Source of the DNA: Candidatus Marinacidobacterales bacterium
GTDB lineage: Bacteria > Acidobacteriota > Vicinamibacteria > Marinacidobacterales > SMYC01
NCBI GenBank assembly: GCA_965224085.1
Contig: CBDCYI010000004.1
Location: 781,170-845,169 of the forward strand
Reading direction: 5' to 3'
DNA: 64,000 nucleotides
This document shows, in pieces, positions 4,451 through 59,977 of the stretch. A program made the position numbers and the translations under genes. The notes beneath the pieces are model-generated. The model searched no databases. It was not told the DNA's origin and saw only the letters and a program-made list of their open reading frames with translations. Positions within the stretch are counted from its first letter, which is position 1. Each line of letters begins with the position of its first letter.

Positions 4451-4625
4451 GGTTCTCCTTTCCGGGAGGCTACCCCGTGTAGCCTTCGGATCGTGTTCTG
4501 GTTCGACTTCGGGGAAGTCGTAGGACTCCCCACCACCGGAGACGACCCATGCAACGGCCGCGCTCTGGCTCTTCTCCATCTAGACGAAATCGAGACGTTG
4601 TAACCTCCCGGTCGGCGGGAGCCTA

Positions 4626-4671
4626 CCACATATAGAGTGCTCAAGCCAATCACCCACCGGATATAGATGTG
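4626..4671. promoter_or_regulatory. AT-rich repeat pair (CACATATAGAG ... GGATATAGATG) in the recA/ydjM divergent intergenic region; candidate promoter or operator
   Basis: Two ATATAGA-containing 11-mers 33 nt apart inside an otherwise GC-rich intergenic region between divergent recA and a YdjM-like gene. Confidence 0.25.
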
Positions 4672-4688
4672 TTACGCTCTCGTTTCCG

Positions 4689-5207: not shown

Positions 5208-5213
5208 GACGAG

Positions 5214-6065: not shown

Positions 6066-6079
6066 TTTCTTCGACGGCC

Positions 6080-7273: not shown

Positions 7274-7277
7274 CGAA

Positions 7278-7748
7278 TTAGGTTCTCCTACGCTGCCCCT
7301 TCGCTTTCAAATACCGCGCCGCGCTTTGCAACACGAGCTCGCGCAGGTTGGGGTCTTCGATCCCAGATGCCAAAGCACAGAGCTCTGCGGGCGGCACGAG
7401 ATGCGCGCGCTCACCTACGTCCTCCACCACAGTCTCAGGCAGACCGTGCAAACGACTTCTTTTGGTAAAGTTGATCCGCCGCACCAAAGTCATCCCCAGC
7501 GCGCGGTTGAGCTTCGGCATGATGCGATTTTGCAAGCGATAGATCATTTTGCCCCAAACGACGTCGGTGACGCGCACTGTCAAGACGCCTTGGCTCAGTG
7601 CTTCCGGCTCGGAGCGCCGCGCGAACTCAAGGCCGACGACATCCACCCATCGTCGAGCTACGAACTCTACCGAATAAACGCGCTCTTTCGCTACTTTCGG
7701 CAACGCGTGGCTAAGAACATCCTTGAGCGAAGCATGTTCTCGGCGCAC
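7278..7748 (-). CDS. DUF721 (DciA-like) domain protein
   Basis: DUF721-like core [32 protein letters not shown]; it is the first gene of a minus-strand operon with the thiolase and hbd. Confidence 0.55.
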
Positions 7749-7768
7749 GTTGTTATTATGTCACGAGC

Positions 7769-9157
7769 ATGATCGCCGCGATGATCCTCGCCGCTGGTGA
7801 ATCGCGGCGTATGGGCTCACCGAAAGCCCTGCTTCCTTTCCCCGAGCCCGCTGGCACGGAAAACACGTTTCTTGGCCACTTGCTCCAGGTTTTTGGCGCG
7901 ACGCGTGCGAAGCCCATCATCGTGGTGGTTGGCCACCACGCGGAGAAGCTTCGTCGTGAATTCGACTTCAGCAACGCTCGCGTCGTCGTGAACGAAAGCT
8001 ATCGCGACGGCATGCTGTCTTCCATTCTTGCCGGGCTCGAAGCCTTGTCGGGCGAGCCCGTCGACGGTGCGCTCATCTGTCCCGTCGACCATCCCGATGT
8101 CAGCCCTGCGGTCGTCGGCACGCTCATCGCTCGCTTCGAGCGTGAGCGGCCTCCCATCGTCCTCCCAACGTTCCAGGGACGCCGCGGACACCCCGTGTTG
8201 TTCTCGAGCGCCGTTTTCTCGGAGCTTCACGCCGCCCCCAAGGGGGTTGGCGCGCGCCGAGTCGTGTGGGATCATCAAGAGGATCTCGTAGAAGTGGAAG
8301 TTTCGCACGGGGGCGTGACGATCGATGTCGACACGCCGGGGGACTACCGTGCTTTCCGAAAGATATCGGTGGTGGACACACTCTCGCAATTGACATTGAG
8401 CCTTTCGAAAGAGCTCGAGCGGCTCGAAGTGCGTGGCGCGCGCTCGCTCGCCGCCGCGGATCGCGAGCGTGATCGCGCGCTTCTCGAAAGTCCCGCCAAG
8501 AGCGTTTTGACTCGCTACCACCGAGGTCTCGAAAAGGCGAAGGTCGCCCATTTGCGCGCCATCGACGACGCGGAAGCCGTGCGGGGGCAGGAGATCGTGG
8601 CCGCCGAAGAAAAGCGGCGGCGTGACGCGCTTCGCGAGGAGCGGAAGTTTCGCGACGCGCGGCGAAAAGCGGACATCAAGAAGCGCGAGGCGACGCAAAA
8701 AGCGCGCAAGACGTGGCGCGAAGCTGTCAAGAACGCACGTAAGAGCCGTCTCGCACAACGTCGCCAGATGCGAAAAGCCGCCGACGAGGCGCTCGAAAAA
8801 GCGCTCGACGAGGTGCGCGAGAATTACAACGAGTCCATCGAGGACGCTCGCCTCGCCCACCGCGCGGCGCTCCAAGACGACCTCGTCGACGAACGGCTCG
8901 CCGTCGAAAAGGCCCGCCGGAAATCCGAGCGGCTCATCACCGGCGCCGCCATCGCCCATGAGCGCGCGGTGGCGCAAGAAGAAGCCCGGCTGCGAAGCGA
9001 GCTCGTCCGCCACCCCGAAGCGCGGCTCACGCAGGAAGAGCACGATCGACGTGTCCACGAGCTGCGTCAAGCATCCGACGCGGAGAAGGAATCGCTCTTC
9101 CGCGCGTTCACGCGCGAGCGCCGCCAGCAGAGAACGACACGCCGCCGAAAAAAATAG
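7769..9157 (+). CDS. MocA/MobA-like nucleotidyltransferase fused to a long Glu/Arg/Lys-rich predicted single alpha-helix/coiled-coil C-terminal region
   Basis: N-terminal 200 aa reads ILAAGESRRMGSPKALLPF...ICPVDHPDV (MobA-like NTP_transf_3). The C-terminal 260 aa is ER/K-rich low complexity (RRKADIKKREATQKARKTWREAVKNARK...). The 417-aa antisense ORF was judged spurious. Confidence 0.6.
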   Translation: MIAAMILAAGESRRMGSPKALLPFPEPAGTENTFLGHLLQVFGATRAKPIIVVVGHHAEKLRREFDFSNARVVVNESYRDGMLSSILAGLEALSGEPVDGALICPVDHPDVSPAVVGTLIARFERERPPIVLPTFQGRRGHPVLFSSAVFSELHAAPKGVGARRVVWDHQEDLVEVEVSHGGVTIDVDTPGDYRAFRKISVVDTLSQLTLSLSKELERLEVRGARSLAAADRERDRALLESPAKSVLTRYHRGLEKAKVAHLRAIDDAEAVRGQEIVAAEEKRRRDALREERKFRDARRKADIKKREATQKARKTWREAVKNARKSRLAQRRQMRKAADEALEKALDEVRENYNESIEDARLAHRAALQDDLVDERLAVEKARRKSERLITGAAIAHERAVAQEEARLRSELVRHPEARLTQEEHDRRVHELRQASDAEKESLFRAFTRERRQQRTTRRRKK

Positions 9158-9192
9158 ATCACCGTGCGCGAGCGCGATAGGATTGCGCGCTC

Positions 9193-9777
9193 ATGAAACC
9201 TACGCCCGTGATCCTCGCCTCGTCGTCGCCACGCCGCGCTTCTTTGTTGAAAGCGCTCGGTATCCCGTTCCGACGTGTCGCGCCCGATGTGAACGAGACG
9301 CGCCGGCCCGGTGAATCCGTGCGCCGCTACGTACAGCGGCTCGCTATCGAGAAAGCGCTCGCCGTAGCGAAAACACGCCCCCACTCTTGGGTCATCGCCG
9401 GCGACACGACCGTCGTCCTCGACGAATCGCTGCTCGGGAAACCGCGCAACGAGCGCGAAGCCCGAAAGATGCTCCGTCAACTCTCCGGCCGCAGTCATCG
9501 TGTTCTGAGCGGTATCGCGCTCGTTCGCGGCGATCGCGATTCGATCCAAAGCGCGATCTCGTCGACGCGGGTCACGTTTCGCCCGTTATCGGACGACGTG
9601 ATCCGCTGGTATGTGCGCACCGGCGAGCCTCTCGACAAAGCGGGTGCCTACGGCGTGCAAGAAAAAGGCGGGATGCTCATAGCGAGCATCGACGGCTCTT
9701 ACTCGAACGTCGTCGGCTTTCCGCTCGAGAAGTTCTACGACCTCTGGGAAGCGGCAGGCTTGCCGCTTCCCGCCTGA
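9193..9777 (+). CDS. maf: Maf-like nucleoside triphosphate pyrophosphatase (septum formation protein Maf)
   Basis: Maf motifs ILASSSPRR, GDTTVVLD, AGAYGVQEKG. Confidence 0.85.
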   Translation: MKPTPVILASSSPRRASLLKALGIPFRRVAPDVNETRRPGESVRRYVQRLAIEKALAVAKTRPHSWVIAGDTTVVLDESLLGKPRNEREARKMLRQLSGRSHRVLSGIALVRGDRDSIQSAISSTRVTFRPLSDDVIRWYVRTGEPLDKAGAYGVQEKGGMLIASIDGSYSNVVGFPLEKFYDLWEAAGLPLPA

Positions 9778-10364
9778 GGCACCCAGTTCAATAACTCTAG
9801 CCGCGGCCCGCGCCGGCTGAAACGGATCCAGCTTATCGAGCCGTTGTCACAGGCGAGGCGTCGAAAGCTAGCGAGCTCCAGTTCTAAATAGTGCGCGATG
9901 AGCACGCGCAGCGGATCGCCATGCGAGACGATCATGAGCGTTTGCTCTGTTCTCGTTTCGAAAAGACGTTCGGCCGCTGCGGCGCTTCGGTTTTGTACCT
10001 CAGCGATGGGCTCGATGAGCTCAGAGCGGTGGGTCGGGTCCTCGATCACGCGTTCGAGCTCGCTATCCCCCCGGAGCTCTACGACGGTCTTGCCTTTCCA
10101 TGCATCCGAAAGCCACACTTCGTCGAAGCCGGGCTCAACGAGGACAGAAAGCCCGCGTGGCGCCGCGATAGGCTCGGCGGTCTGCCTAGCTCTCGGTTGC
10201 GGGCTCGAATAAACGGCGTCGATCGAGACGTGTGCCAACGCTTCCGCAACGCACTCTGCTTGCACACGTCCACGCGCGTTGATGTCGAGATCGACGCGCC
10301 CCATGAGACGGCCGTCCTCGTTCCAATCCGTGACACCGTAGCGGACAAGAACGAGGCTCTTCAT
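9735..10364 (-). CDS. Histidine phosphatase family protein (phosphoglycerate mutase-like)
   Basis: RYGVTDWNEDGRLMGR (RHG-like catalytic motif) and SHGDPLRVL; its 3' end overlaps the maf 3' end by 43 bp (convergent). Confidence 0.7.
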   Translation of the reverse strand: MKSLVLVRYGVTDWNEDGRLMGRVDLDINARGRVQAECVAEALAHVSIDAVYSSPQPRARQTAEPIAAPRGLSVLVEPGFDEVWLSDAWKGKTVVELRGDSELERVIEDPTHRSELIEPIAEVQNRSAAAAERLFETRTEQTLMIVSHGDPLRVLIAHYLELELASFRRLACDNGSISWIRFSRRGPRLELLNWVPQAGSGKPAASQRS

Positions 10365-10575
10365 GGCTCAAAGTCTGAAAAAGCGCTCGTTGCCTTCATC
10401 GCCAGTGAGCCGCAAAGGCCCACGCCCGTTAACGTCCACAACGAAAATATCCTACTGCTCCCACTGCTCAGTGCCGCCGTGAACGACGGTCGAGGCCATC
10501 GCGAGCAATAATCCGTCGGAGGAGAACAAAGGGCGATGGCAAGGGCGAGAGAGGACGCTCGAGCTCCGATCGCGA

Positions 10576-11388
10576 TCAGTCCCTGAGCTCAGTGGAGAGA
10601 ACGCTGAGCTGAAACAGCTCGAGGTTTCTCATGGACTTCTTGAAAAAGCCCGCATATTCGAGCGCGGACGCATCCTGTTGGACCATGACAACCGCTTCCC
10701 TCCCGTCGCTGACGTCGACCGAGAACGATCGCGAAACGACGTCGACCCAGCGCTCGAACGATCGGTCACCTTCATTGACCTCGTAGAGCATTCGAATGAG
10801 CTCGCGTTCCGAGCTCGCCGAGGGCGGCAAATCGATACGGAGCGACACCTCCCCTTCCTCGGCTTCGAGAACGGAGCACTGGAAGCCATCCAGAGTCTCG
10901 ACGAGCAGAGCGTCGGTCGGGGAGAACGTGAACGAGTTGTAGAGCGTACCGCCATCCACCGTGTCGGGCTTCTCGTCGTCGAACGTGCATGCGCGGGCGT
11001 TGCCGATATGGATCCTCAACCTTATTCTCGTATCCGTCGCGTTGTCGCTTCCGGTCTCGAACGCGTACCAGAACGAGCGACCGCTCAGACGGAGTGAGAT
11101 GACGCGGCCATCACGCACAATGGTCTCTGCGGGTGCAGCGTCCGGCTGCACGTTTCCCGAGACTTCCGTCCCCGTCGCCCCGGCATCCTCGTAGTCGATG
11201 CGCTGGATGTCCTTTTTCGAGATGACGAGCTCGCCGTAGGCGGTCTCGAGCGTGATGACCATGTTGTTCGCCGCCACGAGCTCACCATGCAAGACGTCTC
11301 CGTTGTTCAGATAGACGACCTCGGCCGGCGAGAGGGCGGAGGCGGCCAAGATCAACACGATCCAGTACGCCCCGCGTATTCTTGACAT
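10576..11388 (-). CDS. Secreted hypothetical protein
   Basis: N-terminal signal peptide (MSRIRGAYWIVLILAASALSPAEV); no recognisable domain. Confidence 0.5.
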   Translation of the reverse strand: MSRIRGAYWIVLILAASALSPAEVVYLNNGDVLHGELVAANNMVITLETAYGELVISKKDIQRIDYEDAGATGTEVSGNVQPDAAPAETIVRDGRVISLRLSGRSFWYAFETGSDNATDTRIRLRIHIGNARACTFDDEKPDTVDGGTLYNSFTFSPTDALLVETLDGFQCSVLEAEEGEVSLRIDLPPSASSERELIRMLYEVNEGDRSFERWVDVVSRSFSVDVSDGREAVVMVQQDASALEYAGFFKKSMRNLELFQLSVLSTELRD

Positions 11389-11441
11389 AGTTTTTCTTTG
11401 TCGCCGAAAAACGCATTATAGCCCGTGGTAGCCTTCTGGAC

Positions 11442-12109
11442 ATGTACCGCGACCTCCAAACCATGGCGCTAACGGCCGGATATTTCGCTGTCCTGCTCGT
11501 GCTGGTAGAGACCTTGCGTCGTCGCGTCCATGTCGCGTCGGACGTCACGCGCAAGATCTTCCTCATGGGGACCGGGGCTTGGGCGCTCGTCGCCGTACGT
11601 GTGTTCGAAGATAAAGGCTCCGCCGTGCTCGTGTATGCGGCGCTCGCAGTACTTCTCTATCTCTCGTTTCGTTTCGAGCTCTTCGCTGGTATCGAGGATT
11701 CTGGTCCGAGCCTCGGCACCGTCTTTCTAGCGCTGGCGGCTGCGTCGCTCCTGCTTTGTTCTGGGGTGGGCGCATCGAGATAGGCGTCGCCGCCGTCGTT
11801 GCCGCTGTTTTTGGAGACGCGGCGGCGGCGCTCGTGGGGAGGCGCTTTGGGACGCGGAAATTCCGCTCCTTCGCTCACATGCGGAGCATGGAAGGCACGC
11901 TCGCGATGTTCCTCGTCTCCGGTCTCGTAATGGCCCCGATTCTCGCGGGCTCGGGCGGGCTCGGCTGGCACCAGGCCGTCGCATTCTCTCTCATCACCGC
12001 CACCGTGGCGGCTTCGGTCGAGGCCGGCTCGGCCTACGGAGTGGACAATCTGACGGTGCCGCTCGCGGCCGCGGCCACCCTCGTTCTCCTGTTTCGGTTC
12101 ACTCAGTAA
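11442..12109 (+). pseudogene. CTP_transf_1 family membrane protein (CdsA/dolichol-kinase-like), split by an apparent frameshift near 11756-11783
   Basis: The N-terminal hydrophobic ORF (11442-11783) and C-terminal ORF (11756-12109) are in different frames. The C-part carries the family motif GDAAAALVGRRFGTRKF...SMEGTLAMF. Confidence 0.5.
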
Positions 12110-12321
12110 CGCTCGACAGCAATACTTTCTGGCTCCGCCGCGATCGGCTCCGCCGCGAGAAGGACCGTCCCGTTGATGGGCAAGAAGGCCTCGAACAAGC
12201 GCTCTTTCACTTCGAGCGCAATCTCGTAATAGCCGCTTTCATGAACTTGAACGAGCTTGCCCTTCGCCCCTTTGACTCCGAGCGCTTCATTGTAAACCCG
12301 TACATGACTTTGAAGGTCCAT
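12103..12321 (-). CDS. Small hypothetical protein (72 aa), co-directional with and downstream of lat
   Basis: ORF with balanced composition; no domain recognised. Confidence 0.3.
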   Translation of the reverse strand: MDLQSHVRVYNEALGVKGAKGKLVQVHESGYYEIALEVKERLFEAFLPINGTVLLAAEPIAAEPESIAVERY

Positions 12322-12392
12322 GACGTCCCTTTCGCGTAAGCTAACTACTCAATGGGCTTTATCCGTCATTTTAGGCAACGCCTCGGGACCCG

Positions 12393-13716
12393 TCAACCGA
12401 GCTGCGCGAGTATCTTCTCCACGATGGTGAGCCCCTGGTCGATGTCTTCTTTCGAGACGGTCAAAGCGGGCCGGAAGCGCACCGAGCATGTCCCGCAGCC
12501 GAGCAGAAGCAGACCATGGTCGAAGGCGAGCTTCAAGAAACGATTACGCACGTCGCCGCTCTTGAGATCGAAAGCACACATGAGGCCGCGGCCGCGGACG
12601 TTTACGACCTGCCCGCTTCGCTCGGCCGCGCAGGCATGGAGCTTGTCGAGCAGATAGCCTCCGACGTCGCGCGCGTTGTCAACAAGGCTGTCTTGCTCGA
12701 TGATCTCGAGGTAGCGGCCGAACCGCACCATGTCGACGAGATTGCCACCCCACGTCGAGTTGATGCGCGTCGATTCGGAGAATACGTTGTGCTCCACTTC
12801 GTCGATCCGGGAGCCGGCAAGAATCCCGCACACTTGGGTTTTCTTGCCGAAGCAAAGGATATCGGGCTCGAACCCATAATGCTGATAGGCCCACATTTTC
12901 CCCGTGAGGCCGACGCCCGTCTGCACTTCATCGACGATGAACAGAAATTCGTTTTCGTCGGCGAGCTCGCGAAGCGTGTGAAAAAACTCAGGACGGAAAT
13001 GACCGTCGCCGCCCTCGCCTTGAATCGGCTCGATGATGAGCCCGGCAATGTCGTCAGGGTTTTCGACAAGGGCCTGCTTGATTTGCTCGATGGCCTTTTT
13101 CTCTGCCGCGGCGACGGCCTCTACATGGTCCGCGAGCGGGAACGTGATCTTGGGGTTTTTGATGCGCGGCCAGTCGAACTTCGGGAAATACAGGGTCTTG
13201 CGCGGATCGGCTGTGTTCGTCAACGAAAGCGAATAGCCCGTGCGCCCGTGAAAGGCTTCTTGGAAGTGGAGGATCTTCTGGCCTTTATCACCCGAGACGC
13301 CGTTTTTCGCGTTGAAGCGCACTTTCCAGTCGAACGCGGTTTTGAGAGCGTTCTCTACAGCAACCGAGCCCCCCCGCAACCATGAACAGACGTGGTAGGG
13401 AATCCGGAATGGCCACCCGAGCGAACGTGTCGACGAACTCTGCCATCGGGATCGTGTAGATGTCGGAGTTGCTCGGATTGTGAATCGCCACCTCCGCCAT
13501 CCGTTTCATGAAGTCCGGCTCACGCATCTTGGGATGGTTGATGCCGACCGGGTTCGTTGCCAAGAAAGAGAAGAAATCCAAGAAACGGCGGCCTGCGCGG
13601 CTGTCGTAGATATACGAGCCTTGACTTCGCTCCAGGTCGAAGACGAGGTCGAATCCATCGACCAGCATGTGCTTTTCGAGCGTACCGCGTACATCGGTGG
13701 GCTTCATCGTCAACAT
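12393..13716 (-). pseudogene. lat: L-lysine 6-aminotransferase (class III aminotransferase), interrupted by a +1 frameshift in a G7 homopolymer
   Basis: N-part (13288-13716) and C-part (12393-13379) align end to end with LAT (FMVAGG|SVAVENALKTAFDWK, EPIQGEGGDGHFRPEFF, DEVQTGVGLTGKMWAYQ, FGKKTQVCG, LNSTWGGNL). The break sits at the C-run 13369-13375 on the plus strand; deleting one base gives an intact ~440-aa protein. Confidence 0.85.
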
Positions 13717-13985
13717 CGGTGTCTCCTCTTATTCGTGGGGATTTGCCGCACGCGAATCGAGCCTGTCAAAATCTCAGTAGCGCTCGGGCAATGATGTTCC
13801 GGAGTCGCTAGGTACCCCGATCGAAGGCTCTACGTCGCCCCGTAGAGGTAGATCTGAAACATGACCCGATTATGCTGCTTCGTCATGGCTTGGGTTATTT
13901 TAGCATTTCCCGTGGCCCCGCCGCCCGGGGCTCTCGCTTTTGCGTCCGCAGCGCGGCATCGATATAATCCTGGGTTCTCTACGTT

Positions 13986-15017
13986 TTGCATGCCTTGGAG
14001 CGTATGACCGCGGCCAATTTTAGCGAGCTGGACGACATTGGCTTTCTCCGCGAGACCGCTCTGTTTCGGGACATGCCGGAATCTGTGATCCAGACGATCA
14101 TGACGCAGGGCCGAACGCTCGAGTTCGGCACCGGGCAGCTCGTCGTTAAACAGAAGACCCGGGGCGATAGCCTATTTGTCGTGAAATCGGGCGTGGTCGA
14201 GGTCGTTAATCCGGGGGAAGGCCCTCCCCTCGCTTATCTCGGGCGCGGGGAGAGCTTTGGCGAAATGGCGCTGCTAACGGACTCCGAAAGGAGCGCAGAT
14301 GTTCGGGTGCCCCAGCAAGCCGAGCTTCTGGTCATCGATCGCGCGTTGTTCGACGACCTGATGACGAACTACTCGGGCTTTGCGGCGCAAATGGCCGTCA
14401 TCCTCGCGCATCGGCTCGTCGCGGTCTTGGAGGACCTTCCCGAGCGCGACGTGAAGCGAGAGCTTCAGGGTGATCTCACCTTTTTCGACCTCGCTACGGT
14501 CGTGCAAACGCTCATCAGTTCTTCGCAGTCGGGCGTCATGACCCTTTCGGTCGATAAGGCGATGGTCGCGCAGCTTTTCTTCCGGAGCGGCAATATCTCT
14601 CGCGCGTATTACGGACACCGTCGCGGAGACGAAGCCGTGCACCATCTCTTCCAGGCGCTCCCCGGCGGCCACTTTTTGTTCGAGAACAGAGTCGACGACT
14701 CGGTTGTGGACGGACCCGATCCTGGAATCACCGTGCCCGCCATGGCTTTGATGATGGACTCGGTGCGGCTCCAAGACGAGCTCAAGATCCTTCTCGAGGA
14801 ATTGCCCGCCGACAAAACGCTTCTCGAGCGCAACGTGGATAAACTTGTCTGGGGCGAGGCCGAAGGCCAGGCGGACGCACACCAGGTCTGGGGGTGTCTA
14901 CACGCGCCGATGACCGTAGGCGAGCTGTTCGATCGCTCGCACGCATGCCATTTCCACACGGCGAGCATTATCGCCGCCTTGCTTCAGACGGAGCAGATCA
15001 GGCCCGTTTTGGGCTGA
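13986..15017 (+). CDS. Cyclic-nucleotide-binding domain protein with a C-terminal DUF4388 domain
   Basis: cNMP-binding fold (GESFGEMALLTDSERSADV) followed by a DUF4388 signature GDLTFFDLATVVQTLISSSQSGVMTL. Confidence 0.7.
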   Translation: MHALERMTAANFSELDDIGFLRETALFRDMPESVIQTIMTQGRTLEFGTGQLVVKQKTRGDSLFVVKSGVVEVVNPGEGPPLAYLGRGESFGEMALLTDSERSADVRVPQQAELLVIDRALFDDLMTNYSGFAAQMAVILAHRLVAVLEDLPERDVKRELQGDLTFFDLATVVQTLISSSQSGVMTLSVDKAMVAQLFFRSGNISRAYYGHRRGDEAVHHLFQALPGGHFLFENRVDDSVVDGPDPGITVPAMALMMDSVRLQDELKILLEELPADKTLLERNVDKLVWGEAEGQADAHQVWGCLHAPMTVGELFDRSHACHFHTASIIAALLQTEQIRPVLG

Positions 15018-15038
15018 CGATTCGGGAGGCCTCCTCGT

Positions 15039-15935
15039 ATGAACTCGAAGCTCATCGGCACGCTTGGTTGCGCGCTCGTCATCCTCAGTCTCAGCGGCCC
15101 CGTCACCACCCCAACCGCACACGGCGCGAACGTCCCCAATAATCTTGTCGTGGACTTTAGGCTGTTCGAAGCTCGCAGCACTTCACCCGATTTTAAAACG
15201 ATGGAGTCGCTCGCCTTTTTCATCGATACCGATGGGGCGGGGGTGACGGATCGCCAGTGGCTCGCGACCATCGCGGGCAAAGTTCCCGACTCTTTTCTCG
15301 CGACCCTGATGACGGAAACGGTAAAGGTCAAAGGTGGCGCGGCTCTTTTCAAAGTGGACAAGAGGTCCCGCAGCTTCGAGACACGCGTCGACCTTAGCGA
15401 GTTTCTCGAGCGCGGCACGTTCGACGCTACCGCGACCGGCGAGCTCAAGCGTCGGAACGAATCGGAGCGCTCGTTCGAGCAGACGATCGAGCTCCGCGCT
15501 GGCAGGACGTCCGTCGTGAGCGGACGCGGCTTCGAGCTTTCCGCGAGCGAGTACTTGTCGCACTTTCGCGATTACAGCGACGGCGACAATCGGCGCAACG
15601 TCTATGACCGGCTTCGAAACTTCGGCGTCTTTCTGATCTTGGCGGTGACACTGCGCCTCGAAGAGGAGCCAGGGGGCGAGGCTCCCATCACGCTGTCGCT
15701 TCCACCCGATGTCGAGTTGCCCGTTCTCGAGAGCCCTCTCGACGTCCGCCTCGTCGGCACGGTCGAGCTCGAGCTCGATATCGATGCGAGCGGGGCGCCC
15801 GAGGACGTCAAGATCGTGCGCTCCTCCATTCCAGAAGTGAATCCGCGCCTTCTGGGCGAAGCCTCCAAGTGGCGATTTCCGAACGCGGCGGGCGCGACCG
15901 GAAGAATCGTTCTCGAGCTCGTCGCCGAGCCCTAG
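15039..15935 (+). CDS. Secreted protein with a TonB C-terminal-like domain
   Basis: Signal peptide; C-terminus VELELDIDASGAPEDVKIVRSSIPEVNPRLLGEASKWRF resembles the TonB_C fold. Confidence 0.55.
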   Translation: MNSKLIGTLGCALVILSLSGPVTTPTAHGANVPNNLVVDFRLFEARSTSPDFKTMESLAFFIDTDGAGVTDRQWLATIAGKVPDSFLATLMTETVKVKGGAALFKVDKRSRSFETRVDLSEFLERGTFDATATGELKRRNESERSFEQTIELRAGRTSVVSGRGFELSASEYLSHFRDYSDGDNRRNVYDRLRNFGVFLILAVTLRLEEEPGGEAPITLSLPPDVELPVLESPLDVRLVGTVELELDIDASGAPEDVKIVRSSIPEVNPRLLGEASKWRFPNAAGATGRIVLELVAEP

Positions 15936-16008
15936 AGCGCTCAATCACCGTTTTACTGGCCTTCGCTTGTGGGCGCTTTCGCGTCATGCTATTTTCCGCT
16001 TAACTCTC

Positions 16009-17319
16009 ATGGGAACGACGTTATCGCCCGACCAGCTGGTGATGGTCACTATCCTAGTCAAGCTGGGCGTCATGGCCTCGATCGCGAGCCTCTTGATTCG
16101 CTTCGGTGCCTTCAAGAGCCTTCTCTACAAAACAGAGCTCTCGCTCAAGGAAAAGCTCATCTTCGCGCTTCTATCGGGGATGCTCTTGTCTTCGGGGGTC
16201 ATTGTCCGTCTTCTCTTGAACTACGGCGCGGCCGATTTGTCGCTCTCGGGCACGGTGCTCGTCGGCTTGCTCGCGGGCCCTTTGACGGGCGCGGCCGTGG
16301 GTCTCATGGTGGGTGCGCCCGCCGCGTTCAACGGCGCGCTCCTCGCGTTGCCGCTCGGGGTGCTCTACGGTGTGAGCGGCGGTATCGTTCGTGAGCTGTG
16401 TCGTAAAGAAGATATATGGAGCTTTTCACCGCTCATCTTCTTGAACCTCTACCGGATCGGTAAGACCGCCATACGAGACCGCATCTTCGATTGGCAGGTC
16501 GTCATTTTCGCGGTCACACTCGCGCTCGAATCGTTGCGCATCTTCGTCGGCTCGGAGTTTCCCGGTTTCATCTTCCATCTGTCGTCGCAGAATCCTTGGG
16601 TCATGCTCGCCATTTACACCAGCACGCTGGCGGCGCTCGGCATTCCTTTGAAGATTTGGAACAACGTCCGGCTCGAGCGCAAGCTCGCTGAGCAGGAAGT
16701 GCTCGTGGTCCGGGCGCGACTCCAAGCGCTCTCGAGCCAGATCAATCCCCACTTTCTGTTCAATACGTTGAACTCTATTGCGTCGGCGACACGCACCAAC
16801 CCGGAGGTCGCGAGGCGTCTCATCCGTAAGCTTTCGAGCATTCTGAGAAAGCTTCTTCAAGAGCAGGAGCACTTCGTACCGCTCAAAGAAGAGCTCGAGT
16901 TCATCGACTCCTATCTCGACATCGAGTCAGTCCGCTTCGGCGCGGGCAAGCTCGTCGTCGAGAAAGAAGTCGAGGACAACACACTCAACACCCTCGTGCC
17001 GTCGATGATCATCCAGCCTCTCGTCGAGAATGCCGTCAAGCACGGCATCTCGACCCGGCTCGAGGGCGGGCGCATCGTGATCCGCGCCCGGCGCGGGATG
17101 GGCGCCGTCATCATCGAGATCGAAGATAATGGTGACGGCCTCCCGCAAGGCGAGCGCGCCGCCGAAGGCCACGGGATCGGCATCGCGAACGTAAACGAAC
17201 GACTGAACGTCATCTATGGCGAGCCGTACAAGATCGAGCTCGTGAGCGCTCCCGATGAGGGCACCGTGGCGCGCATCGAGATCCCGGACGTCGATATCTC
17301 CCATTTGCGAGCGAGCTGA
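16009..17319 (+). CDS. Sensor histidine kinase, LytS/YehU family
   Basis: Polytopic N-terminal membrane domain, His_kinase (PF06580-like) motif QINPHFLFNTLNSIAS, and an HATPase_c domain. The ATG at 16009 is preferred over the TTG at 15967. Confidence 0.8.
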   Translation: MGTTLSPDQLVMVTILVKLGVMASIASLLIRFGAFKSLLYKTELSLKEKLIFALLSGMLLSSGVIVRLLLNYGAADLSLSGTVLVGLLAGPLTGAAVGLMVGAPAAFNGALLALPLGVLYGVSGGIVRELCRKEDIWSFSPLIFLNLYRIGKTAIRDRIFDWQVVIFAVTLALESLRIFVGSEFPGFIFHLSSQNPWVMLAIYTSTLAALGIPLKIWNNVRLERKLAEQEVLVVRARLQALSSQINPHFLFNTLNSIASATRTNPEVARRLIRKLSSILRKLLQEQEHFVPLKEELEFIDSYLDIESVRFGAGKLVVEKEVEDNTLNTLVPSMIIQPLVENAVKHGISTRLEGGRIVIRARRGMGAVIIEIEDNGDGLPQGERAAEGHGIGIANVNERLNVIYGEPYKIELVSAPDEGTVARIEIPDVDISHLRAS

Positions 17320-17369
17320 CTAGTGGCCTCGAGCTTTATGCAACGAACCACTGAAAGAGGACACTACCC

Positions 17370-18131
17370 GTGAGCGTACGTGCCCTCGTCGTGGACGACG
17401 AACAGCTCGCCCGAGAGGAGCTCTGTTTTCTTCTCGAATCGGTCCCGGAGGTTGAAGTCGTTGGCCAGGCGCAAAACGGCCTCGAGGCCGTCGCGCTCGT
17501 GGAACGGCTCGCTCCCGAGCTTTTGTTTCTCGACATCCAGATGCCAGGTCTCGACGGATTCCAAGTGGCGCGCGAGCTCATGGGCCGCGACGATCTCCCT
17601 CGATTCATCTTCGTGACGGCCTACGATCGCTATGCGATCAAAGCCTTCGAAGTCAATGCCGTCGATTATCTGCTGAAGCCCGTCGACAAAACGCGACTGG
17701 GCGAGGCCGTATCGAGGATCACACACGAAAAAGAAGGGAAGCCCATTGCGAGCCAGCTCGAGCGGCTCCTCGGAGCCCTCGAACGGACAAATGCGCAAAA
17801 GCGCCTCGTCGTCAAAGCGGGGGACCGCTTCATGCTCGTCGATGCCTCGGACGTCATCTATGCAATGGTTGAAGACGGTGTCGTGACGATCGCGACGGAT
17901 CGGGTAACGGGCACGTCGAACGTGCGCACGCTCGACGAGCTCTCGGCATCGCTCGACGCGGACGTGTTCTGGCGCGTCCACCGCTCGTACATCGTGAATT
18001 TGCAACGCATCAAGGAAGTCGTCCCATGGTTCAACCGCACGATCCAGCTCAAGATGGCGGATCGGAACGAAACCGAGATTCCGGTATCGCGCTCCCACAC
18101 GCGGCGCCTCAAAGAGCACTTGAACTTGTAG
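17370..18131 (+). CDS. LytR/AlgR family response regulator (REC + LytTR DNA-binding domain)
   Basis: REC domain (VVDDEQLAREEL, FLDIQMPGLDGF) and a LytTR domain; GTG start with AAGAGG SD. Confidence 0.9.
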   Translation: MSVRALVVDDEQLAREELCFLLESVPEVEVVGQAQNGLEAVALVERLAPELLFLDIQMPGLDGFQVARELMGRDDLPRFIFVTAYDRYAIKAFEVNAVDYLLKPVDKTRLGEAVSRITHEKEGKPIASQLERLLGALERTNAQKRLVVKAGDRFMLVDASDVIYAMVEDGVVTIATDRVTGTSNVRTLDELSASLDADVFWRVHRSYIVNLQRIKEVVPWFNRTIQLKMADRNETEIPVSRSHTRRLKEHLNL

Positions 18132-50059: not shown

Positions 50060-50900
50060 ATGCGTGCATCATGTGCAACAGCGATGGCCGTAATCATCTC
50101 TTCGATGGCAAGCTGGAGCGAAGGCCAAACGCCCCCTAATCAATGGAGCTTAGGATTGAGTCTTCGTGAATCCAGGCAGTTCGATCGCGTCGTCAATGAC
50201 GGGCTGGGGGATGGCCGGATTACGGACAGCGCTAGCGTCAATTTCGGCTACTCGACCAATCGTGAGCGCTCGAGCCTCTCTTTGTTCGCGCGCGGGAGCG
50301 AGCTTTCCTAGAGCCGAAGAAGAGCGCAACCGCCCGATCAATTTTGGTTTGGGTTTGCGTTGGAGTCGGCGGGTGACGGAGCGTTTTCAATCTTCGATGC
50401 GTGTGACGGCCAACCGAAACTTCTCCCGCGAGAGGCTAACGGAGCTCGGCATCGTCGCGCCCGACCTGGAGAGTTATTCCGCGGGTGCGAGTTGGCGCAC
50501 ACAGTACCAGGCGAGTGCACGCACCGGCATGTCGACGTCGCTCAGCTACCGGTTCACGGACATCGTGAATGCACAGCCGATCCCTGGCTCTCAAATCGTT
50601 CTCGAAGAGCAACCTTTCGGCGACAGCTTGTCTATTCCCGCGGGAATCGACGTCGACGCGAACGTGCCGGTTCGGGATGGTCAGAATGACGTTCTAGACA
50701 TCCTCGCTGCCGAAGGACTCGACAGCCTAGCGAATCGCAGCCAATTTGCATCCGCCGGCTTCGGCCTGAGCCGTACGCTGTCCCAACGCACGTCGATCGG
50801 CTTGAATGTTTCGGCCGGCTATCGAATTTTGGACAGGGGCAGAAGTGACGGAGGGTCGAACGCGTCGGGGGGGGGTTCACATACAGCGTTCTCTGGGAAC
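50060..50900 (+). pseudogene. Putative outer-membrane beta-barrel protein of the EPS locus, frameshifted near 50300 and 3'-truncated by IS insertion near 50900
   Basis: Signal peptide (MRASCATAMAVIISSMASW), alternating beta-strand-like segments ending in aromatic residues (SLSYRF, NVSAGYRIL). The reading frame runs into the poly-G at 50871-50879 and then into IS-derived sequence. Confidence 0.4.
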
Positions 50901-50914
50901 GACGAGCTCATTGA

Positions 50915-51699
50915 GCGCAGCCTACAATGTCGGACGTACGCTCGCGATTGTGCCGGCGACCATGGTGTTTCATCTGTCATCTAGGCAGAGCGAGGGATTG
51001 CTGCGATCGTTGTTCGCTCTGATGAAGCTAGACAATGATGTGCCCGATCACACCACGATCTCGAGGCGCAAGGCGAAGCTGGGTAAGGTCCCCTTCTACC
51101 AAGACAAGCAGAAGACGCCGTTGCACATCTTGATCGACAGCAGCGGTCTCGCTGTCCACGCCGGCCAGCTGCGCAGAGCACCAAATAGCAGAGACTATCG
51201 CAAGCTCCATCTGTGTGTCGACGAGCAGACTGGCGAAGTCGTCGCTTGCGAGCTGACGAGCAAAAGAGCCCGCGATTCATCGCGGGTTGCATCGCTTGTC
51301 GGACAGAGCGACAGTCCCATCTCATCGGCCAGAGCTGACACCGCATACGACGCCAGCGGCGTCTATGAGGCAATCGAGAATCACAGCGCTCATCGCTCGC
51401 CGAGGGTGCTGATACCGCCGCGCAAGGGCGCCCAGCTCGCATCGGGGCCGGCGAGCAGCCGACAGCGCAATCGCAACATTGCAGCACAAGCTCGGCTCGG
51501 CAAACGAAAGTGGCACACAGAATCGGGCTACAGCAAACGGAGCAAAGTCGAGACAACGTTCCATCGCTACAAGGCTATCGTGGGCTCAGCGATGCGAGCG
51601 AGAGGGTTGGCGGCACAGAGAGTCGAGGCAAGGATCGGGTGCAAGATTCTCAACACCATGACGGCGCTCGGGATGCCTGATAGCGAGATGATCGGATGA
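50915..51699 (+). mobile_element. IS5-family (IS903-group-like) transposase remnant, 5'-truncated
   Basis: LLRSLFALMKLDNDVPDHTTISRR...LHILIDSSGLAVHAGQ...RKLHLCVDEQTGEVVACELT...DTAYDASGVYEAI...YKAIVGSAMRARGL... matches the IS903-type DDE transposase from about residue 60 onward. The N-terminal ~60 aa are missing and the upstream sequence reads through from the host gene. Confidence 0.7.
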
Positions 51700-56312: not shown

Positions 56313-57398
56313 CTAACCGCGCTGCGTGCGTTGGCGGAGCGCGTGATCGGCGAGGGTCACCGCCATCATCGCTTCGGCCATCGGGACGAACCGCGGCAAG
56401 AGGCAGGGGTCGTGCCGCCCTTTAGTAGCGATCGTCGTGGCCTCACCTTCGCGGTTCACCGTTTCTTGTTCCCGGGGAAGGCTGCTCGTCGGTTTGACCG
56501 CACACCGCAGCACGATAGGCATGCCCGACGAGATGCCGCCTAGCATTCCGCCATGTCGATTGGTGCGGGTCACGATGCGCTCGCCGTCGCGCGTCAACAC
56601 GTCGTTGGCTTCGCTTCCCCGCATCGTCGCGACGCCGAAGCCCGCGCCGTACTCGACGCCCATAACGGCGGGAAGGCTCAACATGGCCTTTCCGAGATCG
56701 GCCTTCAGCTTGTCGAAGACGGGCTCGCCCCAACCCGGAGGGACCCCCGTCGCAACGATCTCCGAGATACCACCAACAGAATCGCGCGCGCGCCTAACCT
56801 CTTCAATGAGCGCAATCATCTCCTCCGCGACGGCAGCGTCGGGACAACGCACGATGTTGGCCTCCACGGCCTCGAGCGTCACGGCATCCGGATCGGGCAC
56901 CTCCGCCACCAGGTCTCCGATCTGTTTCACATAGCCGACGATACGCACGCCGAAAAGCTCACCAAGAAGCTTCTTCGCCACCGCACCGGCAGCGACCCGC
57001 ACGGAGGTTTCGCGCGCGCTCGAGCGGCCGCCGCCTCTATAGTCACGGAAACCGTATTTCGCGTCGAACGTCAGATCGGCGTGTCCGGGGCGATACTTGT
57101 CGCGGTTCTCCGAGTAGTCGCTGGGCCGTTGGTCTCGATTGCGGATGCTTATCGCAATCGACGTCCCCGTCGTCTTGCCGTCGAAGACTCCGGATAGAAT
57201 CTCGGGGGCATCCGCCTCTTGGCGCTGCGTGGTTACTTTGGACTGGCCCGGACGACGCCGATCTAGATCGGGCGTGAGGTCCGACTCCGAGAGCGCGAGC
57301 CCAGGCGGAACTCCGTCGATGATGACGACGTAGCCCGGCCCGTGGCTTTCGCCCGCGGTCGTGATCCGAAGACACTGGCCGAAACTGTTTCCAGGCAT
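56313..57398 (-). CDS. aroC: Chorismate synthase
   Basis: [32 protein letters not shown], and full-length similarity. Confidence 0.95.
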
Positions 57399-57406: not shown

Positions 57407-57982
57407 TTACTTCGGTCGAGACGGAAAGGTAGGCGCAACGCAAAGATAAGAAAGAGGCACTGCGTCCGCGAGCCACACACCGTTGTCGGAGACCAACAAC
57501 GTGTACCCGTCCGCAGCCATTGCGTGGGCGTCGACCTCGAGGATGATGATCTCGCCCTTGCGCCGGGCGCCGACGCGGCAAGCCGTCTCCACATCCGGAG
57601 ACAGGTGCACGTGGTGGCGGCTCATCGGGCGCAAACCGCCGCTCGCTTGAATCTTGGCCCACTTCTCGCTCGTCGTGCCGTGAAACAAGTGGGCAGGCGG
57701 CTTCTGTGGTGTCGAAGACACGGCGTGAACGTAGGAGACGCTGTGCCCTTGATTGGCCCGCACCTGCCCATCCCGGAGCGTGTAGCGTTTCTTGTCGTCG
57801 TTGGCGACGATTTCCTGAAGCGCCTCCATCGTGAACTGTGGGTAGCGAGGGCGCATGGCGCTCACAAGCTCGGCGGCATCGACGTAGCCCGATGGGTCGA
57901 GCCTCACCCCGATCTCTTCAGGACGGTGACGCAACACGTAGCAAAGAAACTTGCTGACGTCCCGACGGATCCACTCAGGCAC
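57407..57982 (-). CDS. kptA: RNA 2'-phosphotransferase (Tpt1/KptA family)
   Basis: SKFLCYVLRHRPEEIG...GYV, HGT..., and HVHLS motifs of Tpt1; its start abuts the stop of the upstream ligase gene. Confidence 0.85.
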   Translation of the reverse strand: MPEWIRRDVSKFLCYVLRHRPEEIGVRLDPSGYVDAAELVSAMRPRYPQFTMEALQEIVANDDKKRYTLRDGQVRANQGHSVSYVHAVSSTPQKPPAHLFHGTTSEKWAKIQASGGLRPMSRHHVHLSPDVETACRVGARRKGEIIILEVDAHAMAADGYTLLVSDNGVWLADAVPLSYLCVAPTFPSRPK

Positions 57983-59665
57983 TTAGGCCTCGGATCCGGG
58001 GAATCGAATCAGCTTGCCCCGAATCCGCCCGCCAATGAGGGCGGAGTCCCACGCGATGCTAACAGGCGTGAGGTGCGGCGCGCGGGAGCGGATGAAACGC
58101 CCACGAGTAAAAGCCGGCGTCCCTTCCGGAGGCTCCGAAACGGCTCTTTCGATCTCGCCCGGTGCCACCAGGAACCGGTGCACGTTTCCGGTCGCCGCGA
58201 ACTTCTCCGCATATCCTTCTTCGAGCTCGTGATAGCGAAGATCGATCGTCTTGAGCATCGCGAGGTCATTCTCATCGCCACAGGCCTCGAGAAGATAACG
58301 CTTCGTCACCCAGTCGAGGCGCCCGACGAGCCGCGACATCTCTTTGCGCTCGAGAGCCACGAGCACGTCTTCCCATTGCTCCACGACTTCGGACGCCTCG
58401 AGTGAGGTCGTCTTCGACGCGCTCAAAAAGCCTTTCGCTTTCTCGAGGTAGTAGCGCTGAAGCTCTAAGGCGCTCACCTCGCCGCGATCGCTCTGCACCA
58501 CGGCTTCGAGGCTAGGATCCGCCGTTAGCGCGTGAAGTGCGGCGACGGGTTTCGGGAGGTTCGGAGCGTCGCGGAGCCAGCCGGCTTCGGCCATATCGAT
58601 CACGAGCGCGGTCGTCCCCATTTTCAAGAACTCGGTGTCCTCCAGCATGCTGGAATCCGCGAGGCCGAGTTGCAGGCGTTGCCGCCGGCGAAACAAGCTC
58701 AGGAGCGGCAATATGTGGAAATGCGCCGCCGCGAGGGCCGGCTTCATCAAGTTACCGGTATCGAAGATCGCGCGGTCGTTAGGGCTGATCGAAAAACGCA
58801 TTTTTCGCTTGATCGCCGGCGCTTTTTCGGACAGCACGAAACGCCCGTCTGGCTCGACGCTTCCCGAACCGCTCAGCACGGGACGCGACACGAGAAATGC
58901 CAGCGTCTTTTGTCGCACGCGGCGGAAGGCGAAAAGACGGAGCAGCAAAGAAAGGGCTGCAATGACAGGCAAGGTCACAACATAGCTCAGCCAATAGAGG
59001 AAGCGTCCGAGTAGGTTCTCGAGCTTGTGATCTTCGAGCGACGTGAGACGAGCAAACCATCGGCGGTGTCGCAACGGCGGAAGCGCCGCCACGATGGCCG
59101 CAGCCGTTCCGACGACGATGGCCGCGACCAGGAGCGCCATGAAGACCAACCAGCCGAGGACCACCGTCGCTGCGAGAAGCGGCATGAGGAGTGTGAGGCC
59201 AAGCCGGTACAACCAGAGCACGCGGCCGGGGGCGACCCGGCATTCGAAGCTCTCCTGCGCGCCATAGACATGCCCTTCGACGTCACGGCAGTTTTTCAGA
59301 AGCCCGAGGCGACCGGGAAAACCGCTAGAACCGAGCTCCTGCTCGGCTTCGGGGATCGCTTTGCGGAGAAGCGATTCCTGAGCTTTCTGGTAGAGCAGGA
59401 GCTGCCCCGGCCCGCGACATTCGGGCGTGGCGCCTTCGATGAGACCGCCTTCCACATGGTAAGGCAGATACTCGTAGTGAAAGGCGCCACCATTCTCTGT
59501 GAAGATCTGGGGCCGCTCGGAGTACATGCCCGGCTCGGTGCGAACCCGTCTCCCGATGGCACGGGCCAACGAGTCGTAGATTCTATCGTTTCCTGGATGA
59601 GCGAAATCGGGAGAAAAGCGAATGGCGTATTCAGTCTCCTGTCCCATCAGGCGACCGAACAACAC
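57983..59665 (-). CDS. Pup-ligase/deamidase (PafA/Dop) family protein with a ~100-aa hydrophobic insertion (predicted 3 TM helices)
   Basis: N-terminal RLMGQETEYAI (PafA RIMGIETEYG motif) and GATPEC. C-terminal half aligns with PafA/Dop (LVIDMAEAGWL, SALELQRYYLEKAKGF, RLDWVTKRYLLE, IDLRYHELEEGY, TRGRF...). Residues ~150-250 read VLWLYRLGLTLLMPLLAATVVLGWLVFMALLVAAIVVGTAAAIVAAL...LYWLSYVVTLPVIAALSLLLRLFAF; GTG start. Confidence 0.75.
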   Translation of the reverse strand: MLFGRLMGQETEYAIRFSPDFAHPGNDRIYDSLARAIGRRVRTEPGMYSERPQIFTENGGAFHYEYLPYHVEGGLIEGATPECRGPGQLLLYQKAQESLLRKAIPEAEQELGSSGFPGRLGLLKNCRDVEGHVYGAQESFECRVAPGRVLWLYRLGLTLLMPLLAATVVLGWLVFMALLVAAIVVGTAAAIVAALPPLRHRRWFARLTSLEDHKLENLLGRFLYWLSYVVTLPVIAALSLLLRLFAFRRVRQKTLAFLVSRPVLSGSGSVEPDGRFVLSEKAPAIKRKMRFSISPNDRAIFDTGNLMKPALAAAHFHILPLLSLFRRRQRLQLGLADSSMLEDTEFLKMGTTALVIDMAEAGWLRDAPNLPKPVAALHALTADPSLEAVVQSDRGEVSALELQRYYLEKAKGFLSASKTTSLEASEVVEQWEDVLVALERKEMSRLVGRLDWVTKRYLLEACGDENDLAMLKTIDLRYHELEEGYAEKFAATGNVHRFLVAPGEIERAVSEPPEGTPAFTRGRFIRSRAPHLTPVSIAWDSALIGGRIRGKLIRFPGSEA

Positions 59666-59685
59666 CGACGTGGCGTGGCGACGCG

Positions 59686-59835
59686 CTATTCGCCGCCCTC
59701 GGGCACGATGGTCTCGCTGAGGTAGCGATCCTTGAGGGTGCGAGCGTCCTTCGCGATCTCGAGGATAATTCGCTGAGCGCTGTGCTCGCGCGCGTCGTGC
59801 TCTTCTTCGATTTCAAATTCGAGGATGGGTTCCAT
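59686..59835 (-). CDS. 49-aa acidic protein ending in -PEGGE; candidate Pup-like modifier (not in ORF track)
   Basis: Manual translation gives MEPILEFEIEEEHDAREHSAQRIILEIAKDARTLKDRYLSETIVPEGGE*. SD GGAG lies 11 nt upstream of the ATG at 59835; the stop is 20 nt before the ligase start. C-terminal Gly-Gly-Glu as in Pup(E). Confidence 0.5.
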   Translation of the reverse strand: MEPILEFEIEEEHDAREHSAQRIILEIAKDARTLKDRYLSETIVPEGGE

Positions 59836-59977
59836 GAGTGTTCACACTCCTACTTCGCTACGTCCACCATACCACAGTCTGCCATTCGCTGCAGCCTCAG
59901 CACGGCCACCAGCCGGAGCCGGCGCTCTGGAGTTGCGCGTTTCTAAATTGATCTCTTCGAGCGCACATCGTGTCGGG

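Follow-up and report, generated by a model that had tools for sequence, protein, structure and literature searches.

A GGE-ended mini-protein and a membrane-inserted PafA/Dop-family enzyme form a two-gene, Pup-like module predicted to act without a proteasome

To our knowledge, pupylation is understood in Actinobacteria alone, where it feeds the proteasome or the ARC unfoldase. A different arrangement was predicted computationally by Iyer, Burroughs and Aravind (2008; Biol Direct 3:45, PMC2588565), who reported a Pup together with a Pup ligase carrying inserted transmembrane (TM) segments in Plesiocystis pacifica and Rhodopirellula baltica. In that study, Pup proteins were defined by a length of 50-90 aa, a G-[EQ] at the C-terminus and a gene located beside one of the PafA family; four TM segments were counted, inserted in the ligase just C-terminal to core strand 4; the Pup and ligase genes were unlinked to proteasome genes, pupylation of membrane proteins was proposed, and a linked membrane-protein gene was described in two genomes (PMC2588565). 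Here we analyze positions 57407-59835 of a 64,000-nt stretch of a Candidatus (Ca.) Marinacidobacterales genome (contig CBDCYI010000004.1; the whole stretch is hereafter the window), where a 49-aa protein ending in Gly-Gly-Glu (GGE), the putative tag, is encoded just upstream of a 560-aa PafA/Dop-family enzyme, hereafter the ligase, itself followed by a Tpt1/KptA RNA 2'-phosphotransferase. A sequence-only reading of this DNA had concluded that the locus matches no described architecture, but the same architecture appears in Iyer et al. (2008), so the locus joins an already predicted kind and its architecture is not a new discovery. The two-gene module is real and widely conserved, and its function is a prediction. 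That first reading was thus partly supported: its observations were largely correct and its interpretation partly right, but it erred on KptA, on the position of the insertion in the ligase and on novelty.

The three minus-strand open reading frames (ORFs) are present exactly at the coordinates first proposed for them. The module consists of the first two, with one associated signal:

59686-59835, minus strand: small gene of the putative tag, 49 aa (ORF and sequence read from the window; homologues lie just upstream of the ligase elsewhere)
59847-59851, minus strand: AGGAG, Shine-Dalgarno-like, 11 nt before the start codon (ATG) of the small ORF (direct sequence reading)
57983-59665, minus strand: gene of the Pup-ligase-family enzyme, 560 aa (Pfam, NCBIfam, AlphaFold2 and Foldseek)

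The small ORF is acidic (14 acidic and 6 basic residues), is preceded by the Shine-Dalgarno-like sequence and ends in VPEGGE, as had been described, and the ligase ORF begins 20 nt downstream of it. From a scan of one genome per GTDB species, which yielded 182 relatives of the ligase, we kept 80 loci with 8 kb on either side of the ligase gene; two further loci, L081 and L082, were considered in addition. Using the 49-aa protein as a tblastn query, a same-strand match upstream of the ligase, usually immediately upstream, was found in 78 of the 80 loci, and all 78 matches end in GGE when extended to their stop codon. Manual inspection of L059 added one more GGE ORF upstream of its ligase, which brings the total to 79 of the 80 loci. 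The sole locus whose 17.6 kb (positions 1-17653) contain no GGE- or GGQ-terminated ORF is L018; there, a DUF5658 membrane protein is encoded just upstream of the ligase. The small ORF was also called by gene callers in L081 and L082. These proteins are mostly 45-70 aa long and their genes are mostly separated from the ligase gene by 2-60 nt. Their C-terminal 25 residues are conserved, with the motif D[AS]x6-7[YF]Lx[ED][TS]xVPxGGE, and the N-terminal half varies freely. A phmmer search with the 49-aa protein against 1.84 billion representatives returned eight matches; seven are small proteins that end in GGE, and no canonical Pup is among the eight. The conservation of the GGE ORF upstream of the ligase shows that the small gene is real and that its GGE terminus is under strong selection. 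The pairing of a GGE-terminated mini-protein with the ligase, as first proposed, is therefore well supported: homologues exist and the GGE end is conserved far beyond chance.

The relationship of the small protein to Pup itself is less clear. None of 45 small proteins matched the Pup models of Pfam (E-values up to 10) or NCBIfam, and the match of the 49-aa ORF to the Pup family PF05639, suggested earlier as a check, was accordingly not obtained. A profile search of the PDB with the small-protein profile retrieved no Pup chains, a hidden Markov model of the small protein gave no significant score against Pup sequences, and an hhalign comparison with one Pup was not significant (E = 0.064). When a profile of 21 database Pups carrying PF05639 was used instead, hhalign reported a weak similarity (P = 0.013; probability 3.3%) with 26 columns in register at the C-terminus, aligning LLDEIDDVLEENAEDFVRAYVQKGG of the small-protein profile with IILEIAKDARTLKDRYLSETIVPEGG of the Pup profile. 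None of these comparisons gives statistical proof that the tag and authentic Pup are homologous. By the working definition of Pup orthologues in Iyer et al. (2008), the small protein nevertheless qualifies: it is short, ends in G[EQ] and is encoded beside a PafA-family gene.

The assignment of the ligase is firmer. The 560-aa protein has a single, full-length Pfam match, to Pup_ligase (PF03136; 2.3e-73; 248.1 bits relative to a threshold of 25), in which residues 5-541 cover positions 1-439 of the 441 in the profile, and the PafA/Dop motifs quoted previously (RLMGQETEYAI, GATPEC, LDWVTKRYLLE and IDLRYHELEEGY) are all present in it. Its scores fall below the cut-offs of both NCBIfam equivalogs (PafA, TIGR03686: 163 bits, cut-off 551.3; Dop, TIGR03688: 141 bits, cut-off 492.3). 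More than 750 homologues of about 550-600 aa were found, and an exact-sequence look-up of the ligase of the window returned no record. The AlphaFold2 model, built on 89 homologues, has a mean predicted local distance difference test score (pLDDT) of 93.1 and a predicted TM-score (pTM) of 0.92. Searched against the PDB with Foldseek, it matched Dop (1.5e-24) and PafA (2.6e-23) with TM-scores of 0.72-0.84 normalized to the target and 19-23% identity to these chains, and gamma-glutamyl-cysteine ligases (GCS2/YbdK) only at 1.5e-5 with TM-scores of 0.38-0.56. A GCS2 identity of the ligase is ruled out by these Foldseek results and by Pfam, where PF03136 is the only match, and the PafA/Dop assignment made initially from the motifs holds. 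These results place the protein among the carboxylate-amine ligases with a glutamine-synthetase fold, where it represents a clade of its own, the third next to PafA and Dop.

The active site further distinguishes this clade. Three elements could be located in the ligase gene:

59630-59644, minus strand: codons of G8-Q-E10-T-E12, the GhExE ATP/Mg2+ motif (aligned to GIETE of PafA/Dop)
59471-59473, minus strand: codon of Glu65, in the column of the catalytic Asp of PafA/Dop (profile alignment to Corynebacterium glutamicum PafA)
59252-59257, minus strand: codons of Gln137-Glu138 in YGAQESF (alignment to PDB PafA/Dop chains)

The GhExE motif is the one defined for carboxylate-amine ligases (PMC2588565), and its residues E10, T11 and E12 are invariant in our alignment A1 and at least 90% conserved in our alignment A3. 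In the profile alignment, the segment ...nGGafyyE of the clade stands opposite NGSRLYLD of C. glutamicum PafA, which puts Glu65 in the column of the catalytic Asp (D64 in C. glutamicum, Cg; D57 in Mtb). This column holds Asp in the PDB entry 4b0t (LYLD) and Asn in 4bjr (LYLN), an entry mutated at the catalytic Asp. In Acel Dop, the residue proposed to activate water is D94, and H155 also lies at the active site (PMC8599861). Gln137 stands in for the His of the PafA/Dop motif YGxHENY (YGCHENY in PafA). Both the catalytic Asp and the HENY His of PafA sensu stricto are thus absent from the ligase, which carries Glu65 and Gln137 instead, and E65, Q137 and E138 are invariant in the 89 aligned homologues. 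The Dop loop is a 37-aa element N-terminal to the catalytic Asp (Ala43-Val79 of Msm Dop; Hecht et al. 2020, PMC7947786). In the profile alignment, this loop of about 37 aa between the GhExE and catalytic-Asp strands is absent from the ligase: E12 and E65 are 53 residues apart, the segment aligns to PafA without large gaps, and the N-terminal 143 profile positions are contiguous with PafA residues 9-135, with the corresponding segment of Dop left unaligned. The A-T-P-E that follows the catalytic strand, on the other hand, resembles the S-[AT]-P-E of Dop, whose Pro is Dop-specific. Glu65, Gln137, the lack of a Dop loop and the Dop-like A-T-P-E together show that the enzyme is neither PafA nor Dop in detail.

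The most conspicuous difference from both families is a long insertion with no counterpart in PafA/Dop:

58904-59245, minus strand: insertion of about 114 aa, residues 141-254
59072-59203, minus strand: hydrophobic block 1, residues 155-198, 44 aa (hydropathy and conservation, 89 sequences)
58925-59002, minus strand: hydrophobic block 2, residues 222-247, 26 aa (hydropathy and conservation)

An insertion of 106-118 aa is found in all 89 aligned homologues, at a point where PafA and Dop have about 8-15 residues. Such a conserved length is not expected of an indel artifact, and an origin of the insertion in assembly indels, raised as a possible objection, is ruled out. The hydrophobic insertion of roughly 100 residues noted before is therefore present and conserved, but it does not occupy the position of the Dop loop: it directly follows the YGAQESF (YGxQE[NS][YF]) strand, between residues ~135 and 143 of C. 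glutamicum PafA. Block 1 is nearly free of charge across the 89 sequences, with Lys/Arg frequencies of at most 0.02 and Asp/Glu at two columns alone (0.11 and 0.06), and it is flanked by the invariant Arg154 and a basic stretch at 199-202. Simple insertion-energy sums of 19-mers fall below 0 from residue 157 to 177, and the block has room for two such segments, so that it could form one long or two short TM helices. Block 2 is less hydrophobic, contains a conserved central Pro233 and is followed by R248-R251; none of its 19-mers reaches the insertion threshold in the same sums, and it is likely a re-entrant or interfacial helix, or a partner helix of block 1. The AlphaFold2 model has helices at 147-194, 202-209, 212-245 and 248-260, of which 147-194 and 212-245 are drawn as two long helices. 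The insertion would act as a membrane anchor of the ligase. As it both starts and ends in the cytoplasmic catalytic domain, it can cross the membrane only an even number of times; the about three hydrophobic helices counted originally cannot all be membrane spans, and what is seen is a 44-residue block and a weaker one of 26 residues. Possible topologies are a TM hairpin combined with a segment that is interfacial or re-entrant, a pair of long TM helices, or four segments as counted by Iyer et al.

The tag-ligase pair is found across at least six phyla. The 80 loci comprise 16 from Acidobacteriota, 18 from Myxococcota/'Deltaproteobacteria' (including the Nannocystaceae/Enhygromyxa group), 20 from Planctomycetota (including Pirellulaceae), seven from Leptospiraceae and other spirochaetes, two each from Oligoflexales and Verrucomicrobia, and 15 from unclassified metagenome-assembled genomes (MAGs). 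Two of the loci, L029 (Paraliomyxa miuraensis SMH-27-4) and L042 (Ca. Uabimicrobium amorphum SRT547), come from cultured, named strains rather than MAGs, and these organisms are potential experimental hosts.

All-against-all clustering of ORFs from the 80 loci and the window revealed no third gene conserved across phyla. Synteny at the order level was observed in Acidobacteria alone (class-III aminotransferase, tag, ligase, aroC, NUDIX). The conserved neighborhood anticipated for mini-protein, ligase and kptA thus holds for the first two genes and not for kptA. In the window, Pfam scans of the 30 largest other ORFs detected no proteasome subunit, AAA/Mpa or second Pup_ligase; these ORFs encode ordinary metabolic, transport and regulatory functions and one transposase, in agreement with the original statement that prcAB, Mpa/ARC and dop are missing from the 64 kb. 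Likewise, proteasome, Mpa and Dop genes are not conserved within 8 kb of the ligase in the 80 loci and none occurs in L001 or L081, and no locus has a second Pup_ligase paralogue within the same distance.

In 18 of the 80 loci, Ser/Thr kinase genes lie within 8 kb of the module; most share its strand, and their offsets are scattered (e.g., L008:3772-7686, L022:3139-6996 and L062:6481-7389). Considering these offsets, we judged the kinases informally to be chance neighbors in kinase-rich genomes and rejected them as partners. About 9 of 77 loci have a membrane-protein gene downstream of the ligase, and the families represented are unrelated (DUF456, MFS, DUF2254 and PNTB). DUF456 is directly 3' of the ligase in three related Pirellulaceae loci (L067:6094-6639, L068:2616-3161 and L074:3423-3989) and absent from the other 77; it may correspond to the membrane protein whose gene Iyer et al. 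(2008) found linked, but this restriction to three related loci rules it out as a general partner. In Oligoflexales, an MFS transporter gene lies 3' of the ligase on the same strand (L036:3333-4553 and L043:2775-3995).

We think that the locus is probably a self-contained, two-gene, proteasome-independent and membrane-anchored Pup-like conjugation module. The 49-aa protein would be a disordered acidic tag whose conserved C-terminal 25 residues, a helix followed by an extended VPxGGE tail, would dock in the groove of the ligase. The glutamine-synthetase-fold catalytic domain would lie on the cytoplasmic side, held at the inner membrane by the hydrophobic helical insertion. By analogy with PafA, the gamma-carboxylate on the tag's terminal Glu would be phosphorylated with ATP, and the tag would then be transferred to an amine, most likely that of lysine side chains on membrane-embedded or membrane-associated proteins. 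The outcome would be regulatory, or the recruitment of some other factor, and not proteasomal degradation. Since every tag ends in Glu and not in Gln, no deamidase is needed and one enzyme is enough. We infer a ligase rather than a hydrolase activity, a role that is economical because all tags are Glu-ended, the Dop loop is absent and the enzyme is the sole member of its family nearby, and we likewise infer the acceptor and the physiological role. The anchor points to acceptors on the cytoplasmic side of the inner membrane, and a dedicated receptor of the Mpa kind is made less likely both by the free variation in the N-terminal half of the tag and by the absence of conserved partner genes. That Iyer et al. 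(2008) independently came to the same interpretation of the module supports it. A proteasome-independent conjugation system had also been suggested when the locus was first read; the Pup-like mini-protein, the membrane-inserted enzyme and the lack of a linked proteasome agree with this suggestion, but the role given to KptA does not.

Several results weigh against such a module. The tag has no Pup match in Pfam or NCBIfam, and its profile-profile similarity to Pup is weak (P = 0.013). The changes of the catalytic Asp to Glu65 and of the His to Gln137 are both invariant and unlike every characterized PafA and Dop, which suggests that the chemistry or the acceptor may differ, and the INTRDEPH region is poorly conserved. 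For the insertion, the two long helices of the AlphaFold2 model disagree with hydropathy and the positive-inside rule, which favor a TM hairpin and an interfacial segment. Finally, a literature search for experimental work on this clade, biochemical work included, found none, and no reader or eraser of the tag was found.

The acceptor might not be a protein lysine at all, although we find this unlikely. The peptide could instead be joined to a membrane amine, such as the head group of phosphatidylethanolamine (PE), or to an envelope precursor, and thereby be anchored to lipid in the manner of Atg8-PE. The conserved insertion holds the catalytic domain at the membrane beside the active-site sheet, both the catalytic base and the neighboring His are replaced in the clade, no protein partner gene is conserved, and other members of the superfamily ligate small amines such as cysteine and ammonia (PMC2588565). 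However, the closest characterized relatives use protein lysines, the C-terminal domain and the overall fold are kept as in PafA/Dop, and the change from Asp to Glu is conservative. In its most specific form, in which the terminal Glu of the mini-protein is ligated to a membrane amine (the PE head group or an envelope precursor) and protein lysines are not used, this scenario appears decidedly unlikely. If true, it would represent a bacterial peptide-lipid conjugation that resembles Atg8-PE in outcome and proceeds through glutamine-synthetase-fold chemistry.

It is also improbable that the enzyme is mainly a Dop-like hydrolase, or that the small protein serves as a non-covalent regulator or substrate mimic, with no tagging taking place. 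The PDB matches of the ligase, in both sequence and structure, are slightly better to Dop than to PafA, and its A-T-P-E, with the Dop-specific Pro, points in the same direction. Yet a lone depupylase without a ligase would have nothing to remove, deamidation is needless when all tags are Glu-ended, the Dop loop is absent, and the strict conservation of the terminal GGE is what would be required of a ligase substrate. In addition, the single-copy homologues of Planctomycetes fall outside the Dop and PafA clades (Hecht et al., PMC7947786).

A conventional Pup-proteasome system, with its proteasome, Mpa and Dop genes elsewhere in the genome, is highly unlikely. The DNA that we inspected amounts to 64 kb of this genome and to 8 kb on each side of the ligase in the other loci, which leaves space for such genes. 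But none of them is found in the window or conserved near the 80 loci, and the unconserved N-terminal half of the tag offers no conserved element to a common receptor such as Mpa. In Plesiocystis and Rhodopirellula there is no proteasome linkage either (Iyer et al., PMC2588565), and some species of Planctomycetes have a single PafA/Dop-related copy (Hecht et al., PMC7947786).

The least tenable alternative concerns the genes downstream of the ligase:

57407-57982, minus strand: Tpt1/KptA RNA 2'-phosphotransferase gene, 191 aa (Pfam PF01885, 7.9e-48)
56313-57398, minus strand: chorismate synthase gene aroC (Pfam scan of window ORFs)

The 191-aa protein is a genuine Tpt1/KptA (163.3 bits for PF01885, threshold 26), although it scores just under the cut-off of the NCBIfam equivalog NF002013 (208.6 relative to 231). 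Bacterial Tpt1 is described, in the accessible parts of three papers, as widespread, inessential and active on nucleic-acid ends, and nothing in those parts links it to tagging (PMC6333775, PMC6097658, PMC12678800). The TAA stop of the ligase directly abuts the GTG start of kptA, as had been seen, but this does not make KptA a member of the module, because kptA adjoins the ligase only in the window, in L001 (92% identity of the ligase) and in L081 (89%), that is, at 89% ligase identity or more. No kptA occurs within 8 kb in the other 79 of the 80 genome loci, nor in L082 (74% ligase identity), and aroC directly follows the ligase in L082, L002, L005, L007 and L020, with a gap of 9-21 nt in relatives without kptA. 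It follows from this phyletic pattern that kptA entered the space separating ligase and aroC within a single shallow sub-lineage. In L001 (from OZ240210.1; positions 9681-10274 of the locus), the closest relative, kptA is frameshifted near residue 140 and its last ~55 residues are in another frame, which reflects either a pseudogene or an indel error in the assembly.

The three genes are indeed tightly packed, but the packing does not stop at them: aroC, a housekeeping gene, starts 8 nt past the stop of kptA within the same close-packed string. Tight spacing alone therefore cannot define a functional three-gene unit or operon. A promoter and terminator scan gave nothing informative, with no terminator-like site on the minus strand in 56.0-61.6 kb, and neither did an Rfam scan of 52-64 kb. 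None of the three proteins matched any PADLOC defence model and the neighbors are housekeeping genes, so that the proposed role in RNA repair or defence finds no support and a defence system is rejected. On this evidence and its phyletic pattern, we reject a third-component role of KptA. A system of three components, with KptA working alongside the tag and the ligase, for instance in RNA repair or defence, is favored by the abutting genes and by the same order in L001 and L081, but is largely refuted by this pattern, the frameshift in L001, the equally tight and functionally uninformative packing of aroC and the absence of PADLOC matches, and we regard it as extremely unlikely. Judged from gene order, KptA is a lineage-specific chance passenger and not a conserved part of the module; KptA and aroC would be unrelated genes that share the gene string by chance.

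Other features of the surroundings were recorded. The neighbors of the module in the window are an aminotransferase gene, kptA and aroC. A DDE transposase is encoded at 50806-51699 on the plus strand, within a region (49-55 kb) of low coding density with short, fragmentary ORFs, and an integrase and transposases lie within 8 kb of the module in L081. At 12393-13379 on the minus strand, a class-III aminotransferase ORF matches its Pfam profile only from position 91 on; it is truncated at the N-terminus or its start is mis-set, possibly via a frameshift.

Returning to the two-gene conjugation module that we favor, its likeness to known systems is uneven. The GCS2/YbdK gamma-glutamyl-cysteine ligase family shares the superfamily fold and the GhExE motif with the ligase, but the match is much weaker (1.5e-5 and TM-scores of 0.38-0.56, as compared to about 1e-24 and 0.7-0.8 for Dop/PafA). 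Dop (depupylase/deamidase; 4b0r, 7oyh and 9cku) provides the best sequence and structure matches and shares the T-P-E after the catalytic strand; in contrast to Dop, however, the ligase has no Dop loop, scores below the Dop cut-off, is paired with tags that are already Glu-ended and has no ligase partner to reverse. Actinobacterial PafA-Pup (4b0t and 4bjr) resembles the module in fold, GhExE motif, lack of a Dop loop, adjacent genes and a tag with a C-terminal GG-Glu, before which the aromatic/hydrophobic spacing is in register. Unlike PafA, the ligase is far under the PafA equivalog cut-off, has Glu for the catalytic Asp and Gln for the HENY His and carries the 114-aa membrane insertion, and the module has no linked proteasome, Mpa or Dop and a tag that Pup profiles miss. 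The enzymes of proteasome-less actinobacterial pupylation loci are soluble. The loci of cluster III, in Corynebacterium and related Actinobacteria, also represent tagging without a 20S proteasome, but they retain Arc, Dop, Pup and PafA, whereas a single membrane-anchored enzyme is found here (Barandun et al. 2012, PMC3511204).

The closest counterparts are of two kinds. The homologues reported by Hecht et al. (2020; PMC7947786) are single-copy and equidistant from PafA and Dop (29-31% identity), and the ligase studied here falls into a third clade of this kind; there, they served only to root a tree, and their function, insertion and partner tag were not discussed. The module of Iyer et al. 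(2008) shares the small G[EQ]-ended protein beside a PafA-family gene, the TM insertion after core strand 4 and the lack of proteasome linkage. It differs in that our locus is from Acidobacteriota (closest relative in Ca. Marinacidobacterales) and has KptA adjacent, in that their linked membrane-protein gene is absent here and not general, and in its four TM segments, where the hydrophobic lengths observed here (44 and 26 residues) fit two to four. To the prediction of 2008, our analysis adds the distribution over at least six phyla, with Acidobacteriota, Leptospiraceae and Oligoflexales among the groups covered, the invariant GGE end, the lack of a conserved third gene, the replacements of Asp by Glu and of His by Gln, the exclusion of KptA and the correct placement of the insertion after the YGAQESF strand. 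Within the enzyme family, the clade is a third, deep-branching lineage that combines one enzyme and a membrane anchor with the lack of a proteasome. As it lies outside PafA and Dop, it may show what Pup-type tagging did prior to proteolysis or independently of it; a regulatory modification at the bacterial membrane may also come to light.

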